From the NCBI GenBank assembly GCA_963764725.1, contig CAVXTM010000016.1, positions 277,598-341,597 on the forward strand: a stretch of 64,000 nucleotides of DNA, read 5' to 3'. The notes beneath the pieces were generated by a model, which was not told the origin of the DNA, searched no databases, and saw only the letters and a program-made list of their open reading frames with translations. Each line of letters starts with the position of its first letter. The first letter of the stretch is position 1. Origin of the DNA: an uncultured Gammaproteobacteria bacterium (GTDB lineage Bacteria; Pseudomonadota; Gammaproteobacteria; JACCXJ01). The position numbers and the translations under genes are program-made. This document shows, one piece after another, positions 2,623 to 9,434 of the stretch.

Positions 2623-3858
2623 TTGTTTGCCGAAGGTGACCTGGACGCGACGCTGCGAGCCCACCAAGGCACCATTGGTGCAAAGATTGATGCGATTCCT
2701 CGCGATCAGTTCATGAATGCACAACCTGAAGAGATCACCGACCATATCCTGTCTGCGATGACGGTTGATCCGTTGGTGATCTACGAGGATCGCGCGGAGA
2801 TGGATCAGCGTGAAACGAAGATTGACGTTAGCGGATGGCGCGACAGAAATCCGTTCGGCGACCGTGGGCCGATCCACGTCGCTGGCGTCGCAGTATCTGT
2901 GTCGATCCCTTTCACTGGTGACTCGTCCTTGTGGAAGCTAAGGCCGAATCAGCGGCAGTCAGTTTTTCCGCGCGCCACAATTGTTAGTTCGCGTGGAGAG
3001 AATGCTGGACATGTCCGCATTGACATGGCGCAACCAACTGACGAGGCGCCAGACCGATTCAAAGCACGCTTAGATGAAGAGGTGAAGACCATCCGTTTCT
3101 ACGTTCAGGCGCAAAAACAGCAAATTGAAGGGTTCAACGCCGGGCTTCGCGCACAAGTTCTTGCCGCAGTTGGAGCAAGGCGAGACCGGATAAAGAAACA
3201 CGAAGGTTTACAGGACATCATGGGCATCCCCTTGAAGCGCAAGGAGGGGGTGCCAGCGCTCGCGCCCGTGAAGATTGCCAGGAAGCTTGTCCGTCCGTTG
3301 CCACCGCCCCCCAAGTCCGGATACAAACCGGAGCCTGGGATTACGGAAGAAGACTATTCGCATATCTTGTCGGTGATTCGGCACGAAGGCAGGACTTTCG
3401 AGACAACTCCGAAGACCTATGCCGTTCACGACGAGGAACAGCTTAGAGACATTCTCCTCGCGCATCTGAATGGCCACTATCAAGGTGACGCTACCGGCGA
3501 GGCGTTTCGACGAAGCGGCAAGACGGATATTCGCATCGAGGATGACGCTCGAGCCGCATTCGTAGCTGAGTGCAAGGTATGGAAGGGACCGAAGGAATTG
3601 TCCCAGGCCATCGACCAGCTTCTTGGCTATCTGACTTGGCGCGACTGCAAGGCCGCCATCGTAGTATTCAACAAGCACAACGCGAAGTTCAGCGGGATCA
3701 TCGACGCCGTCCCTGGGGTCTTCGAGGCTCATCCCCGGTTCCAGCGTGTGCGTGCGGCTGAAGGGGCGGGCGAGTGGCAGTTCGACATGACATCTCGTGA
3801 GGATGAAGGCCGACAGGTGCGTGTTCATGTGTTCGTCTTCAATCTCTTCGTGGCGTAG
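2623..3858 (+). CDS. Hypothetical 411-aa protein with a C-terminal PD-(D/E)xK / Mrr-like nuclease signature; possible stand-alone defence gene
   Basis: Long ORF with a TTG start. The C-terminus reads GDATGEAFRRSGKTDIRIEDDARAAFVAECKVWKG (D..x13..E-x-K), and an R-x5-H element (LRDILLAH) lies nearby. The N-terminal roughly 250 aa resemble no family I recognise. GC is lower than the flanks, and a decayed hsdR is immediately upstream. Confidence 0.5.
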   Translation: MFAEGDLDATLRAHQGTIGAKIDAIPRDQFMNAQPEEITDHILSAMTVDPLVIYEDRAEMDQRETKIDVSGWRDRNPFGDRGPIHVAGVAVSVSIPFTGDSSLWKLRPNQRQSVFPRATIVSSRGENAGHVRIDMAQPTDEAPDRFKARLDEEVKTIRFYVQAQKQQIEGFNAGLRAQVLAAVGARRDRIKKHEGLQDIMGIPLKRKEGVPALAPVKIARKLVRPLPPPPKSGYKPEPGITEEDYSHILSVIRHEGRTFETTPKTYAVHDEEQLRDILLAHLNGHYQGDATGEAFRRSGKTDIRIEDDARAAFVAECKVWKGPKELSQAIDQLLGYLTWRDCKAAIVVFNKHNAKFSGIIDAVPGVFEAHPRFQRVRAAEGAGEWQFDMTSREDEGRQVRVHVFVFNLFVA

Positions 3859-4839
3859 CCGCCCAACCCTCCGCTCAACGCGGACGCGCCGCAAGCGGCG
3901 CGCCGGTTAACGGCACGTTAGGCGGCACGGGGGCTTGAAGGCTGCTATCGGCCACCAGACGACCTGAGCCAGCCGCTCGAAGCAGACCTTCAATGGCGCG
4001 TCCCGATGGAATCGGTCACTTCTTGGTGTAGCCGACGTTCACAACAGTTCAAGTCAGACCTGCGGTCTCGGCAGCTCACCACGCTTCACGGCGCCAACGC
4101 CTACGTTTCAAACCGAGGCTGGAGTAGCATTCTTGATTGCGTTATCGACACGTCGAAGATACGATGCCGCCGGTAGATCGACAGCAGACTGGAGGGAGCC
4201 ATGCCGTATATTCACTTGCTCGCCGCCGGGCATGAACTACACGCTAAACCGGCCCTTGCTCGACGGCACGTCGCCGGCGCGCCTGAAGGAAATCGGCGCG
4301 GTAGCCCCTGAGATCAAGGACTACAAGAGCTGGCACACGGTCTGGCTCGGTTTGGCAAAACGCGCAGAACGCGAACAACGGTCGTTGGATGCCGACGAAC
4401 CCCCCGCCTTCACGCCATTTTTTGCGGTTAACCGCAGAAATTTATGCAACTGGAAGGTTTATTAAGGGAATTGTTTCGGTGAAGGGTGGGTGATGTGGTG
4501 GCTATGGGCATCGGGAGAGAGAGAAAGCCAGAGTAGAGGGCGATCGGATCGGGGGGTTGGGTATCGTAATCGGGTTTAGGGAACTGTTAATAATGCCTTT
4601 CAGGGTGGGATTAGGGGTAGCAGGCAAAGGGAGGCCGTGACCCGAAGAAGACACCGGGCGGCAGCGCGGGCGTTTGCAAGTTGAAGGGCTACACAGGGGC
4701 TGGGGATCGTGTCGAGCCGGGTGGTCCGACGTTTGTGGGCATCCATGGGCGGTGGATGCGCCGTGAGCTATGGAAGCGGAGTCGTCTCCACAGGCCTGGC
4801 AGGCCGGCTGCGGCCAAGGGGATAGCTTGAGGAGAGGCA

Positions 4840-5310
4840 ATGGTTACACACTTCGACCACATCACGATTGTTGTCCGCGACCTCGACGCGGCCAAACGGT
4901 TCTTCGGCCTGCTCGGGTTTGAACACGACCGCTCGGTCGTCATCTCGGGCGATGTCTTTTCCGAATACATGGGGATACCCGGCATCGAGGCCGAACACGT
5001 GACACTGGTGCTGACGGGTGCGGTGCTGCGCGCCGAGGTTCAATTGCTGGCGTACCGGGCGCCGGACCCAGAGCCCAGCCCGCACATCGAGCACTTGAAC
5101 ACGGTCGGGTTCAACCACGTGTGCTTCGCGGTCGAGGACCTAGACGGCGAATTGGGTCGGTTGCGAGCGGCGGGGATCGAGACGCGAAACGACGTGCTCA
5201 ACTTTCACGGCCGCAAACTGGTGTTTCTGCGCGGTCCGGAAGGGATCACAGTGGAGCTTTCGGAACGCTATGACGCAGCGTCTGTTGACTCCGGGACGCC
5301 GCCGAAGTAA
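4840..5310 (+). CDS. VOC / glyoxalase-bleomycin-resistance family protein
   Basis: MVTHFDHITIVVRDLDAAKRFFGLLGFEH...FNHVCFAVEDLDGE..; RBS GGAGAGG precedes the ATG. Confidence 0.8.
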   Translation: MVTHFDHITIVVRDLDAAKRFFGLLGFEHDRSVVISGDVFSEYMGIPGIEAEHVTLVLTGAVLRAEVQLLAYRAPDPEPSPHIEHLNTVGFNHVCFAVEDLDGELGRLRAAGIETRNDVLNFHGRKLVFLRGPEGITVELSERYDAASVDSGTPPK

Positions 5311-5413
5311 CGCATGCACCGGAGCCCGCGCAGCTCTGTTCTTGCGTCCCCCGGTTGGTGCCGTGCGCGGGGATGCTGTGTTCCGAAGAAGCCAACAGAC
5401 ACAGGCAATTTAT

Positions 5414-5971
5414 ATGACAGAATCTCCTCCTGGTGGAACGACCAACAGGACCAATCAACGACTGGCATTCATTTTCTCCAGATGGCTATAAGGCTCGCTG
5501 CCAACAACGACAACGCCCTCGACGTTGGTTGTGGAAGTGGCGGCAGGATAGTCGCTACGCTGCTCGATGCAAGTTACAGGAATCGATGTCTCTGAAGCAA
5601 TGCTTAAGTATGCAAGAACGCGCCATCCAGATTCGGATTTTATACATGCTGACATCTGCGAATGGAAACCTCAGGAGCAGTACGATGCGATAATAGCTCG
5701 GGATAGTATCTTTCACGTACCTTACTCTGAACAACGCAGAGTTATCGGGAAACTGTGTGATGCTCTCGCAAACGGTGGGATAATTCTGTTTACTGCAGGT
5801 GGAGTAGATGGTGAGATAACTGGACAGATGTGCGGGCAGCATTTCTACTACAGCTCATTGGCATAAGAAAAATACTTGAGGATAATGAAAGAGAATGGGT
5901 GTAAGTGCATTCTCATGGAGCGGGATCAACATCCAGAAGAGCATGTGGTCTTTATCGGCGCAAAGGGCTAA
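5414..5971 (+). pseudogene. Class I SAM-dependent methyltransferase, low GC, disrupted by two frameshifts and an in-frame TAA
   Basis: Motif I LDVGCGSGG appears in frame 1 (5400-5575). The continuation VTGIDVSEAMLKYAR...GGIILFTAGG is in frame 2, then TAA at 5864-5866, then an in-frame tail EKYLRIMKENGCKCILMERDQHPEEHVVFIGAKG*. Local GC is about 48% against about 64% in the flanks. Confidence 0.6.
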
Positions 5972-6025
5972 CAATCACATTCACCGGAGGGGCGTTAGAC
6001 GGAGCGAAGAACGAGGACTTGATCC

Positions 6026-6772
6026 ATGAGTACCGTGAACGAACTCTGGCCGAAGGCTGTCGAGGACGGGTTGATCCCGACCGACAACGCGATGGGCATC
6101 ATGACCGAGGAACCCTCACCCGCGGCCCAGGCGTTCATCGAACTGGCGGCCAGCGCCGGCCGGCCGCTGCTGGAGATCGGTGCGGCCTACGGCAACGCCA
6201 CACTGCCCGCGCTGCGCGCCGGTGGCACGGTGATCGCGAACGACCTTTCGGCCTCGGAACTCGGCGTGTTGGCATCGACCGCGCCAAATGAGGATCGCAA
6301 GCGGCTCGTGCTGATGCCGGCGCGGTTTCCCGATCAAATTCGCCTCGGCGACGGCAGCTTGAGTGGAATGCTTGCCGCGCAAGTACTGCATTTCTTCGAT
6401 GGACCGACGGTCGACCTGGCCTTCCACAGCGCCCTTCGCTGGCTCGAGCCGGGCGGGGCCTTGTACGTGGTCGTGATGACACCCAGCCTGAGCTTCTACA
6501 GCCAGTTCCGGCCGGAGTATGAGAAGCGAGCCCGCCGTGGCGAACGCTGGCCGGGAATTTTCGATCCTCGCACCGTCGCCACGCCGGATTGGAAGGAGAG
6601 ACTCCCGCCGATGGTGCATCTCTTTGAGAAAGAGGTGCTGCGGCGTTGCGCGGAGGAGGCCGGCTTCACCGTGGAGACCTTGAAATACTTCTGCTTCCGC
6701 CATTTTCCAGCGAAGCACCGCACCGACGGTCACGAGTTCCTTACGCTCACCGCTCGGAAACCTGTTGCTTAG
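6026..6772 (+). CDS. Class I SAM-dependent methyltransferase
   Basis: 248 aa; LEIGAAYGNATLPAL (motif I-like) ...LEPGGALYVVV (motif post-II); GC typical of the host. Confidence 0.75.
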   Translation: MSTVNELWPKAVEDGLIPTDNAMGIMTEEPSPAAQAFIELAASAGRPLLEIGAAYGNATLPALRAGGTVIANDLSASELGVLASTAPNEDRKRLVLMPARFPDQIRLGDGSLSGMLAAQVLHFFDGPTVDLAFHSALRWLEPGGALYVVVMTPSLSFYSQFRPEYEKRARRGERWPGIFDPRTVATPDWKERLPPMVHLFEKEVLRRCAEEAGFTVETLKYFCFRHFPAKHRTDGHEFLTLTARKPVA

Positions 6773-8320
6773 CTTCTACAAACTCTTGTGCAAAAAAGCA
6801 AAGAGTGTATGCGGGGCCACGACCTGAGAAGGCATACAACGTACTCCGGATAGCGAGTGCGGTGATGAGCACACGACGACCGAAGGTAGTGAGGTAGTAC
6901 TTGTAGCGATGTCCAATCTTTTTGATGAGGCCATGGGTGCGCAAGCGTTTCAACCAGTAGGAGGCACGGCCGGTGGAGAGATCCCGGAGATGGGCTCGGA
7001 GATCGGAAGCGCGAAAGCCGCTGATGTTCCACTCCCCGCGGGCGAGGGTGATAAAAAGGCTATGATCTTCACGGAGGAAGAGATTGAAGCCCCGATAGGA
7101 GCGGTCGTTCTCTCGTATGGGTTTAGCCATTTTGTCGATGGCGTGCAGAGCTGCATTGGGGTTATCGATGCTGGCCATGAAGCTGAGATAGCGTTCAGTG
7201 GCAGCATGCACCAGCTCTCGCAGATCGGGGAGGCATAGATGTTTTTTCGCAGGGGTGCGAGTTCGAATTGCTTGCGCCCATTGCGTTGTTCCACGAAGCG
7301 GTGGTGTTTGAAGAAGGAGACATCGTTGGCGGTGCATTCCACCCGAGCCATGAGACTGAATTTATCGTAGAGCTTGAGGCTCGCTGGCCCCATATGGTGG
7401 CGGATGCGTGTACCCTGAATGCGGGTGTGAAAATCGTTACCGGCCTCCCCGCTGAAGGCCGAGGTGAGTTTGCGTCCCAAGAAGGTGGCGACGTGTTCTG
7501 CCTTGAGGGCATGCACGGCGGTACGCACGATGGCTTGATAGAGGGGTTGGAAATCGGCTTGGCGGTGGAAGATGACATCGGTCGAGAACTCCACCTGCAT
7601 GAAGCTCCAGTGGTAAGCACTGTGAAAGTGACCCACGATGGGGCAGAAGTGCTTGGCCCATTTATCCAGACGACGATGCAAGCCTTTGGGATCGAGGCTA
7701 TCGGCAAGCGACTGAGCACGGCGGGGATCGCCGATGGACAAGAAGGCATTATCGGCGCGCTCAAAGGCGATCCCTGCCTTTGCCAGTCGGTGGGCCAACC
7801 AGTGATGGCCGTTCAAGTAGACTTGCAGGCGAAACGGCGCCCAGGTGGGTACTCGGACATAACAGAGCCCGAAGATCTCATCGATGAAATAGAAGTAATA
7901 ATGCAAACACTTGCCCGGGGTAGACTTCAAACGGGTCGTATGCTGAAGCTTGTCATGCCAGGGGCGATACGAAGGACAGGCCTCCATCGCCGAGAAGATA
8001 TGCACCAGCCCCGGGTGCTCACCGCGCAAAGCCAAAATCGCTTTGATCCGTTCTTCTTTGCGAAACGCCTTGTAATGGCGGATGAACTCGATTTCCAAAC
8101 AAGCCTCAGCGGCCAGCCCCTCGGCATGGGTCCGAAGCGCCTCGCGCAGCGGTTCCGCCCAGCGGGGGTAGTCAAACAGACGCATACCCCGGACACCCAA
8201 ATACCGGGCCATGGCCTCGGCATGGGCGATCTCCGGAAGCGTGCCAGTGATCACGATGCGGTCAAAGCAACAAAGCACCGCGGCGATCTTCTCTTGATGG
8301 CGTTCGACAAAGGGATTCAT
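6747..8320 (-). mobile_element. Transposase-like gene of a family I do not recognise, split by a frameshift near 7240 into 456-aa and 196-aa ORFs
   Basis: The N-terminal ORF begins MNPFVERHQEKIAAV.... The C-terminal ORF carries a winged-helix-like YWLKRLRTHGLIKKIGHRYKYYLTTFGRR. The pair is bracketed by imperfect 19-bp direct repeats (6770-6788 and 8398-8416). Confidence 0.35.
6770..6788. repeat. Left 19-bp direct repeat TAGCTTCTACAAACTCTTG flanking the transposase-like element; overlaps the methyltransferase stop codon
   Basis: 17/19 identity with 8398-8416 (TAGGTTCTACAAACGCTTG), same orientation. Confidence 0.5.
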
Positions 8321-8397
8321 GGTGACAACTCATCTCAATCTTTATTGCCCATCCGCCAGAATAGTACATTTAACACTTTGGTTCCGGCTCTGCCGGG

Positions 8398-8416
8398 TTA
8401 GGTTCTACAAACGCTT
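8398..8416. repeat. Right 19-bp direct repeat TAGGTTCTACAAACGCTTG
   Basis: Direct-repeat partner of 6770-6788. Confidence 0.5.
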
Positions 8417-8562
8417 GCCGCGCAGGCCACGCCTAAGCCAGCTCCGAGGCGCTACCGGGTCGCCGTCCTGCGCTTTGACCCCTAGGTCCTGTTTGCAACC
8501 GACGCGCGTGGGAGTAGAGTGACGGTATCTGCTCAAGAACAACAACGGAGCCCGCCGCTGCC

Positions 8563-9263
8563 ATGCGAGTCCTCGCCGTTCATCCGAGCCCCCTCATGTA
8601 TACCCGGATCTACCTGCGCCTCGAGCCGCTCGGGCTCGAGCTGGTCGCGCAGGCCGTGCGGCGCGCGGGCCATGAGGTGCGGATCATCGACCTACAGGTC
8701 GAGACCCACCGCGATCTCTTCCGACTAATCGAGGGTTGGGCACCGGAGGTCATAGCCTTCTCGTGCAATTACCTCGCGAATATCCCGGAGATAGTGGACC
8801 TCGCCAAGGTCATCAAGGCGGCCCGGCCCCGCTGCTTCGTCTGCGTCGGCGGGCACAGCGCCTCGTTCGTCGCCGAGGAGCTTATCGAGCATGGTGCCGG
8901 AGCCATCGACTGCGTGCTCCGCGGTGAGGGGGAGGCCGGGATCGGCCGGCTTCTCTTGGCCGTCGAGAACGACCGCCGGGCATTAGCCAAGGTGCCGGGC
9001 ACGGTGAGCCCGGAGGGACGCGGCCCGCCGCCGATCTTCGTGCAGAGATGCTATGGAAGTTCAACAGCGTCTATGACCCGCGCTTGCAGATCGCCGATCA
9101 CGAGCGGCCGGCCAGCTACGAAATACGGCTGCCGCCGCCACCCCAGGAGCGCGTCGAGCGGGCGCAGCTCTACGTCCACGCGACCCGCGGCCGGCAGGGA
9201 CGCGCTACCGACGAGGCCACCGAGCGCTTCGTCGAGGAGACCCGCATGGGGACCGGCGGCTAA
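8563..9263 (+). pseudogene. B12-binding radical SAM protein remnant: N-terminal cobalamin-binding domain joined to a C-terminal tail, with the radical-SAM core missing
   Basis: MRVLAVHPSPLMYTRIYLRLEPLGLELVAQAVRRAGHEVRIIDLQ...VIAFSCNYLANIPEIVDL...VCVGGHSASF is a B12-binding domain. Translation degenerates after about residue 150. A separate frame at 9048-9263 (MLWKFNSVYDPRLQIADHERPASYEIRL...) looks like the C-terminal tail of the same family. Confidence 0.5.
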
Positions 9264-9434
9264 GGAGAAAAAGGGGACGATACGGAACAATTCACGGTGT
9301 TCTGCGAGAGACCAGCTAGGAATTTTGCTTGAACCGTGGGTATTTCGCTATTGGGATAGCCTCGTAGGCAGCCTGGCCTGTAATTTTAGCTATACGTGAA
9401 AGCTTCGGGTCAATAGCAAGCCTCGGGCTCAAGG

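Follow-up and report, generated by a model that had tools for sequence, protein, structure and literature searches.

What kind of element occupies the stop codon of a methyltransferase gene in an uncultured gammaproteobacterium, and by which enzyme was it moved there? The stretch analyzed here, 64,000 nt of contig CAVXTM010000016.1 (positions 277,598 to 341,597; hereafter the window), carries at this place a unit of about 1.6 kb with one broken gene on the minus strand and a long direct repeat on either side. A first-pass annotation had called it a single-gene mobile element of no known insertion sequence (IS) family, and had left open whether the repeats were an attachment-type (att) duplication, the ends of an IS91- or IS110-style element, or a target duplication that had since diverged. 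The first part of this description was borne out: there is one minus-strand gene between the repeats, the TAG stop codon (6770-6772) lies inside one of them, and no Pfam or NCBIfam match places the protein in a known IS family. We consider it likely that the unit belongs to a large, so far unrecognised IS family, which would encode a Rep_trans-like tyrosine nuclease and move in the manner of IS91 and IS608, and of which the window carries a dead copy.

A multi-copy family and its ends

The fused translation of the window gene recovered more than 7,700 homologues, nearly all of them about 505 aa long and uninterrupted, and none with a Pfam domain; an exhaustive search gave 7,740 family clusters at 50% identity. 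Most homologues are found on contigs 1.6-2.5 kb long, as is typical of a repeat at which assemblies break. In a scan of one genome per species, 255 relatives were located on bacterial chromosomal contigs from many phyla; the groups represented include Gammaproteobacteria, Chloroflexota, Nitrospirota, Planctomycetota, Acidobacteriota, Desulfobacterota and Verrucomicrobiota-like bins. A plasmid collection contained only distant relatives, annotated as ArsR or hypothetical. Units of 1.64-1.67 kb from one and the same genome share 99-100% identity and lie in unrelated flanks (3 copies in a Chromatiaceae bin, 4 in MFD05684, 5 in a Nitrospirota bin and 4 in a deltaproteobacterial bin). The presence of several identical copies per genome establishes that the family is mobile.

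Both ends were defined on the gene strand from aligned copies. The 5' end, CCCGGCATAGCCGGAACCAAA... (short form CCCGGCATAGCCGGAACC...), directly follows CCTAA, and several contigs begin exactly at this end. The 3' end reads ...CAAGATTTCAxTGGTAAGGGACTA(A), i.e. ...GGTAAGGGACTAA. The pentamer that precedes CCCGG is CCTAA at 63 loci, CCCAA at 4 and ACTAA at 2. Near-identical copies from a single genome can differ in it (CCCAA in L011, CCTAA in L012), and it is therefore target DNA; 65 distinct flanks were counted among 70 loci. At locus L080 the element lies in a host gene made of tandem repeats, so that occupied and empty sites can be compared directly: the neighbouring uninterrupted unit reads AAACCCTAA joined to TGGCACGC, and in the occupied unit the element (CCCGG...TTACTAA) stands between the same two sequences. 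Insertion therefore occurred exactly 3' of the host CCTAA, with nothing duplicated or lost. A 31-nt "duplication" considered at this locus is actually part of the host tandem-repeat gene and serves as the paralogous empty site. Typical copies of the family have neither terminal inverted repeats nor a target duplication, and their non-coding parts measure only ~80 nt and ~50 nt. Combined, these data establish exactly where the element ends, which pentamer it targets and that typical copies lack a duplication.

These properties bear on the simplest alternative, an ordinary cut-and-paste IS with a transposase too diverged to be recognised, for which the 20-bp repeat of the window would be a normal target-site duplication. 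An 18-20-nt target duplication is indeed carried by the window and by one other locus, L018. However, the ~63 other distinct insertions have none, the L080 comparison gives a duplication of zero, terminal inverted repeats are absent, insertion depends on the CCTAA target, no DDE match was found in Pfam or NCBIfam, and the fold described below is TBP-like and not RNase H-like. We regard this alternative as highly improbable.

Hairpins are predicted close to both ends. The 5' hairpin CCGGC-NNN-GCCGG is conserved in ~70 loci with a variable loop, one lineage carries the compensatory pair CTGGC/GCCAG, and the hairpin folds as single-stranded DNA (ssDNA) in all copies tested. In the window it lies at 8384..8397 on the minus strand (CCCGGCAGAGCCGG on the gene strand, stem CCGGC/GCCGG) and starts 1 nt after the insertion junction. 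At the 3' end, ssDNA folding gave weak support for an imperfect subterminal stem-loop, CTCTTTGC-TTTTTT-GCACAAGAG on the gene strand (6783..6805 of the window, minus strand); across the family, 72% of cells are paired in this hand-drawn stem, compared to 24-46% in slid controls. The subterminal GGTAAGG of the right end is complementary at 6/7 positions to CCTAACC, i.e. the target together with the two bases at which the left end begins; the pairing may be of the guide type, as in IS608, or coincidental.

Junctions between copies show how the ends are used. At L044 and L059 the right end (RE), ...GGGACTAA, is directly followed by CCCGGCATAGCCGG, which corresponds to a tandem or circle junction with the left end (LE) and one shared CTAA; the terminal xCTAA of the element can thus itself serve as a target. 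A metagenome scan for the RE-LE junction yielded two further loci. L094 (1148-1522) carries two tandem 187-bp non-coding mini-elements, each with both ends, after a host CCTAA, and at L093 (reverse complement, 8-1164) a non-coding derivative of 1,156 bp directly precedes a further left end; both look like passengers of the family of the miniature inverted-repeat transposable element (MITE) type. Furthermore, in four genomes a distant paralogue is found directly after the ...ACTA of the right end; such pairs were noted at L011, L012, L025 and L036 (~2921-6045), and also at L004 and L017. The protein of the second element at L012 is 23% identical to P0001 (hidden Markov model E 1e-48), the paralogue has its own left hairpin (GCTTTTTCC...GGAAAAAG), and the 3.1-kb pair is multi-copy in one genome. 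The tandem junctions, the derivatives that consist of ends and the landing of the paralogue after ...ACTA indicate that the ends are sufficient in cis.

Compatible with circles, the RE-LE junctions would also suit a tiny rolling-circle replicon in integrated form, a plasmid or satellite with a Rep that mediated integration as well; many metagenome contigs of the family measure 1.6-2 kb, and the enzyme class and architecture proposed below are as in plasmid and viral initiators. Yet every copy on a long contig lies in a chromosome, bordered by host DNA to the left and to the right. Contigs stop precisely where the element does, which is what dispersed repeats would produce, full-length contigs in circular permutation were not encountered, and 1.64 kb is too little to accommodate a second-strand origin or a maintenance function. 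Such a replicon is very unlikely.

Some loci have unusual features. At L060 (~4550-4625) the right end runs into about nine tandem 8-mers, (GTACCTAA)n, each with a CCTAA; these are either a host microsatellite that attracted the element or the footprint of repeated end-processing. At L062-L064 (Sedimentisphaerales; ~2880-2915, 4560-4600) the left flank contains degenerate CCTAA(T/A)A repeats, and the repeated unit reaches ~110-150 nt further upstream and ~40 nt downstream and ends in the palindrome CTCAAACTGGCC...GGTCAGTTTGAG; here the element seems to be nested in, or fused to, another repeat. At L003, a Chromatiales copy that is 92% identical, similarity is lost 6 nt after the stop codon (~4007-4020) and there is no right end; this is thus a further 3'-truncated copy, and no duplication of its flank was detected.

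The protein and its candidate active site

Searches of Pfam, NCBIfam (the models used by NCBI to name proteins, transposases included), PADLOC, PHROGs and PDB sequences returned nothing for the first ~360 residues and only weak winged-helix matches for the C-terminus. To obtain a view of the fold, an alignment of 54 family members, down to 27% identity, was used for an AlphaFold (AF2) model (pLDDT 91.3, pTM 0.78). In this model, residues 1-~360 form two modules of long antiparallel strands backed by helices, a helical linker spans ~360-400, and a winged helix occupies ~415-500. The N-terminal domain as modelled has a fold like that of TATA-binding protein (TBP), not an RNase H-like fold.

The same two-module arrangement of a curved, TBP-like antiparallel sheet is that of the Rep_trans nucleases, and it represents the candidate catalytic domain. 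In Rep_trans initiators the metal ligands D46, D142 and E214, the tyrosine Tyr191 and the religation residues R189/K193 are found on the sheet's inner face (PMC4797284), and the archaeal Rep-Arvir initiators combine a TBP fold with a MarR-like winged helix (PMC13107129). In our 54 sequences D20, R21, E113, Y142, Y144, E244, K316, Y318, K320, R326 and E328 are invariant. For a comparison of motifs, RepC was rebuilt from pT181 and eight Rep_trans proteins were aligned. Four correspondences were found: S-F-D46-A..I.G.L of RepC with C-F-D20-R..I.G.L of the family (model strand 12-27), R-L-D142-L-A-F-D146 with Q-x-E244-x-A-x-D248 (237-251), R189-I-Y191-N-K193 with K316-x-Y318-x-K320 (313-320) and R212-V-E214 with R326-V-E328 (324-331). 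The order of motifs is the same in the family and in RepC/RepD, and at the level of the motif basic residues stand two positions on either side of the tyrosine. By sequence and model, D20, E244(/D248) and E328 would follow each other as D46, D142 and E214 do, on equivalent predicted strands. The best local hhalign alignment placed Y318 on Y191 (E 0.15), and a 191-column alignment placed the E244 motif on the D142 motif (E 0.065). From these data we infer a candidate active site composed of one tyrosine in [K/R]xYxK and three acidic ligands on separate strands, as in Rep_trans.

An alternative view is that the protein is not a nuclease but a DNA binder with a TBP-like domain and a winged helix, a regulator or recruiter. 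Host functions, or the enzyme of another element, would in that case move the unit, or the protein would be domesticated, with a non-mobile role. The few named homologues are publicly called "MarR family transcriptional regulator", and the sequence-level links to Rep_trans are not significant. A typical MarR protein, however, is ~140-150 aa long and consists of a dimerisation helix bundle and a winged helix; here, the protein has 505 aa, the winged-helix-like part covers only ~420-495 according to the matches, and the rest includes a 360-aa TBP-fold domain encoded by a multi-copy mobile unit. This unit contains no other gene and yet multiplies within genomes and across phyla, and non-coding derivatives that keep only the two ends exist. 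An invariant acidic/Tyr/Lys set in the order and spacing of Rep_trans is unexpected for a pure DNA binder, and Rep_trans enzymes are themselves TBP-fold proteins (PMC4797284, PMC13107129). We judge a non-catalytic role unlikely, although it deserves more weight than the other alternatives considered here.

The copy in the window

The direct repeats seen in the first-pass annotation are real. They are found in the same orientation as TAGCTTCTACAAACTCTTG at 6770-6788 and TAGGTTCTACAAACGCTTG at 8399-8417 (17/19 identical) and, together with the preceding T (6769/8398), form 20-mers that are 18/20 identical and 1,629 bp apart, instead of the 1,628 bp first given. At up to 3 mismatches (<=3) this pair represents the only 2 matches in the 64-kb window (0.02 expected). 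The host gene (6026..6772, plus strand) encodes an intact class I S-adenosylmethionine (SAM)-dependent methyltransferase of 248 aa with matches to Pfam Methyltransf_11/23/25, and its stop codon is part of the duplicated target. Two homologues, P0271 and P0272 (98-99% identical), are also 248 aa long and end in ...RKPVA; since the length is the same in the window and in both of these relatives without the insertion, the stop codon is native and was not altered by the insertion.

These homologues led to two empty-site contigs from close relatives of the host, L083 and L084. In L084 the 20-mer is present once, directly at the TAG (...CCTGTTGC TTAGGTTCTACAAACGCTTG CCGCGCAGG...), and L083 has the same arrangement with TTAGTT; L083 3967-4763 aligns to window 5992-6788 and L083 4744-4799 to window 8398-8453. 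As both contigs carry the 20-mer once, the repeat results from a true duplication of the host target, in agreement with the proposal of a target duplication that has since diverged. The right copy, termed T (TTAGGTTCTACAAACGCTTG, 8398..8417), is identical to the empty site of L084, and its TTAGG (8398-8402), the CCTAA pentamer on the gene strand, directly adjoins the 5' end of the element. The left copy, termed T' (TTAGCTTCTACAAACTCTTG, 6769..6788), shows 2 changes with respect to the host sequence. Neither copy is a terminal repeat of the element: the right one is pure host flank, of which only the last 5 nt (CCTAA) abut the element, and the left one is a copy of the host target in place of the normal 3' end. 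Inverted repeats, terminal or subterminal, were sought between the two ends and none was found beyond chance; there is no second copy of the element in the window.

The body of the element (6789..8397, minus strand, 1,609 bp from the 5' hairpin to the 3' subterminal stem) is 92.6% identical to the intact copy L001, with the nucleotide alignment (blastn) extending over window 8403..6781 and L001 4918-6545, and lacks the last ~20-25 nt of the normal 3' end of the family. Two overlapping open reading frames (ORFs) were present on the minus strand, ORF1 (8320..6950, 456 aa) and ORF2 (7337..6747, 196 aa). Frame analysis against intact relatives identified them as a pseudogene (6810..8320, minus strand) of the 505-aa family protein, and not of one of ~524 codons as had been estimated. 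The break that had been placed near 7240 is confirmed as a 1-bp deletion at 7235..7236, where intact copies read ...AACATCTATAGCCTC and the window reads AACATCTAT-GCCTC. Upstream of it, the N-terminal TBP-fold, Rep_trans-like domain (aa 1-~360) is still in frame, and ORF1 retains D20, E113, Y142, Y144, E244, D248, K316, Y318, K320, R326 and E328; the winged helix is out of frame after aa 363. Compared to L001, a cluster of indels (6809..6847, minus strand; -1 at 6847, -1 at 6836, +3 at 6823-6825, -4 at 6815 and -1 at 6809) scrambles the last ~12 codons, and the last of them destroys the stop codon. A programmed -1 frameshift at the A AAA AAC (A6C) run, 7240-7246, was considered and rejected: the frame is broken by the 1-bp deletion, which lies 5 nt beyond the run. 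In all homologues RKNIYSLPDL is encoded in a single frame, with ...LAPLRKNIYSLPDLREL... uninterrupted, and the run is therefore not a programmed slip site. The window copy is an inert relic, its gene killed by several small indels, and the methyltransferase frame is untouched.

Within the family, the duplication in the window is atypical. Read on the gene strand, the locus is L - T(CAAGCGTTTGTAGAACCTAA) - CCCGG...TTTTTTGCA - T'(CAAGAGTTTGTAGAAGCTAA) - R, in which T, with the CCTAA target at its end, matches L084 at 20/20 positions, and T' occupies the place of the last 20-25 nt of a regular right end (in L001, ...GAAGATTTCATGGATAAGAGACTAA). Long duplications are no trait of the family: among ~65 distinct insertions, L018 is the only other case, and its duplication is of similar length. 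At L018 (2901-2925, 4565-4582) the 20 nt in front of a complete element recur behind it as an 18-nt copy (AGCGGTATATAAACCTAA), the duplication being AGCGGTATA[TA]TAAACCTAA. The window structure may have arisen in a related way. The element would have inserted behind the CCTAA overlapping the stop codon of the methyltransferase gene, with the 20 nt upstream of the insertion point duplicated. Both the right end and T' start with CAAG; the loss of 25 bp between these two CAAG motifs, in a single deletion, would turn an L018-like structure into that of the window, and would explain why T' reads CAAGA like the family consensus. A template switch at this microhomology, in one step, is just as possible.

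The repeats might instead be the shared attachment core of an att-type, site-specific element, brought together by an integrase-like activity or by host Xer. The left copy overlaps the 3' stem of the element, of which its CTCTTG is the 3' arm, one of its two differences matches the consensus CAAGA, and the host target loosely resembles the 3' end of the element (CAAG..TT..GTA..CTAA). This resemblance amounts to 14/20 matches in the window compared to 2-11/20, the chance level, for the 20 nt upstream of other insertions, and mimicry of the 3' end by the flank was rejected as a rule of the family. Dozens of insertion sites are unrelated apart from CCTAA, which excludes an att-type duplication as a property of the family; no tyrosine or serine recombinase domain was found with Pfam or NCBIfam, and the 5'-side copy matches the empty site at 20/20 positions, so that it is host DNA instead of a core brought by the element. 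An att-type element is to us the least credible of the explanations considered.

Other rearrangements are visible around this site. An ORF at 8563-~9050 (within 8454-9418) matches only the first ~162/490 positions of the hopanoid C-3 methylase HpnR and then stops; L083 is without this ~965-bp HpnR-like stretch and carries a modE-like gene 100 bp after the methyltransferase. The HpnR-like region was rearranged independently of the element. In L084, ~4141-6253 (corresponding to window ~8444-8453) is occupied by an ISL3-family transposase and a HicAB pair, ~30-40 bp from the site of the window element; the short intergenic stretch behind the methyltransferase gene has received mobile DNA more than once. 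The next methyltransferase gene upstream (~5270-5866) is one 197-aa ORF in L084 and is split in the window (5314-5595, 5567-5866), which across 4826-6788 is ~26 nt shorter than L084; it is probably a second pseudogene.

Relation to known systems and a possible mechanism

The element lacks the enzyme that defines IS91, IS200/IS605, IS110, DDE elements or integrases, and behaves like the first two. DDE insertion sequences differ from it in that they end in inverted repeats, duplicate their target over a fixed length and encode a DDE domain of RNase H fold. Elements with an integrase and att sites differ by their Tyr or Ser recombinase domain and by a single conserved attachment site; here, 65 distinct flanks are seen among 70 loci. 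Of the two styles suggested initially, IS110 is excluded, as there is no DEDD domain and the non-coding parts (~80 + ~50 nt) leave no room for a guide RNA, Rfam giving no match on the window or on the element; this applies to IS1111 as well. The IS91 style is close to the proposed mechanism. IS91, ISCR and Helitrons share with this family a single gene, asymmetric ends without inverted repeats, insertion beside a short specific sequence without target duplication, and subterminal hairpins. In contrast to these HUH Y2 enzymes, our protein has no Pfam/NCBIfam match of any kind, HUH models included, and its fold is TBP-like; the target here is CCTAA. With IS200/IS605 (IS608, ISDra2) the family shares insertion exactly 3' of a 4-5-nt target that stays on the left end, a right end that closes in a related short sequence, the lack of duplication, circle-type junctions and hairpins near the ends (the left one supported here, the right one weakly). 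It differs by a protein ~3.5x larger and of unrelated fold (Y1 HUH TnpA, ~130-150 aa) and by a left hairpin that starts 1 nt from the predicted cleavage site.

As to the enzyme, Rep_trans proteins (pT181 RepC/RepD, RepSTK1 PDB 4CIJ, Tn916 Orf20, ICEBs1 NicK; PF02486) have the same motifs in the same order and spacing, namely D on strand 1, [D/E]xAxD, [K/R]xYxK and RxE. Both systems also have a GC-rich hairpin at the nick region, in pT181 the arms CCGGCTACTCT/AATAGCCGG of IR-II as read in the pT181 record. The pT181 nick is positioned at the IR-II hairpin. The present family differs from Rep_trans by the lack of a significant sequence match, by a putative catalytic domain that is ~120 aa larger, by a MarR-like winged helix in place of a 4-helix DNA-binding domain, by its nature as a multi-copy chromosomal unit of 1.64 kb and not a plasmid, phage or integrative and conjugative element (ICE), and because it appears to act on two different ends and a 5-nt target. 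Rep-Arvir proteins (RepSNJ2, DUF7845/PF25227; PMC13107129) likewise pair a nuclease domain of TBP fold with a C-terminal MarR-like winged helix, which is proposed to read the hairpin origin. Here, however, the loci are bacterial and chromosomal and not archaeal viruses or plasmids, there is no PF25227 match, the tyrosine context is KxYxK and not KHYYM, and the unit is IS-like and not a virus or plasmid replicon. With respect to Rep_trans, fold and motifs agree and the sequence models do not.

A mechanism with the logic of IS91 and IS608, carried out by a non-HUH enzyme, would account for these properties. The winged helix and the nuclease domain would bind the left 5' hairpin CCGGC-NNN-GCCGG, and Y318 would nick the gene strand after CTAA and become linked to the 5' phosphate, the predicted nicks lying between host CCTAA and CCCGG on the left and after ...GGGACTAA on the right. 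The strand would be released, or copied, up to the CTAA of the right end and circularised, giving a circle or tandem junction with one shared CTAA. The same chemistry would re-insert the element immediately 3' of another CCTAA without target duplication.

Several observations weigh against this interpretation. Firstly, the hhalign E values are 0.065-0.21 with RepC alone or with the 8 Rep_trans sequences and are not significant, and none of the 54 members matches PF02486 (E<=1) or PF25227; the link to Rep_trans, based on moderate-Z fold similarity and short motifs, is suggestive. Secondly, the invariant Y142 or Y144 could be the nucleophile instead of Y318. Thirdly, the 3' hairpin has no covariation support, and RNAalifold predicted no structure on 30 right ends. 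Fourthly, neither a circular nor a single-stranded intermediate was seen, and the RE-LE junctions could all be chromosomal tandems. Finally, a simple nick-and-join model would not lead one to expect the ~20-nt duplications of the window and L018. With these points taken into account, a Rep_trans-like IS family remains the explanation that we favour.

The open full-text literature, a scope that leaves aside subscription journals and ISfinder, yielded no transposon with a Rep_trans or TBP-fold enzyme. We are inclined to believe, with somewhat less assurance than for the family as a whole, that this is the first transposable element with a transposase from the Rep_trans/TBP-fold nuclease superfamily and represents a new transposase class. 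It would then stand in prokaryotes beside the DDE, DEDD, HUH, serine, tyrosine-recombinase and Cas1 types. A second, non-HUH lineage of rolling-circle nucleases would also have given rise to transposons, parallel to the route from plasmids to IS91 and Helitrons, which bears on the interconversion of replicons and transposons. A compact single protein that inserts DNA after a 5-nt sequence without duplication could be of interest to tool builders. For the bacteria concerned, a widespread IS family would have gone unnoticed because pipelines label its transposase a transcription regulator, and for many environmental genomes IS censuses, the interpretation of assembly breaks and the calling of pseudogenes would have to be corrected.

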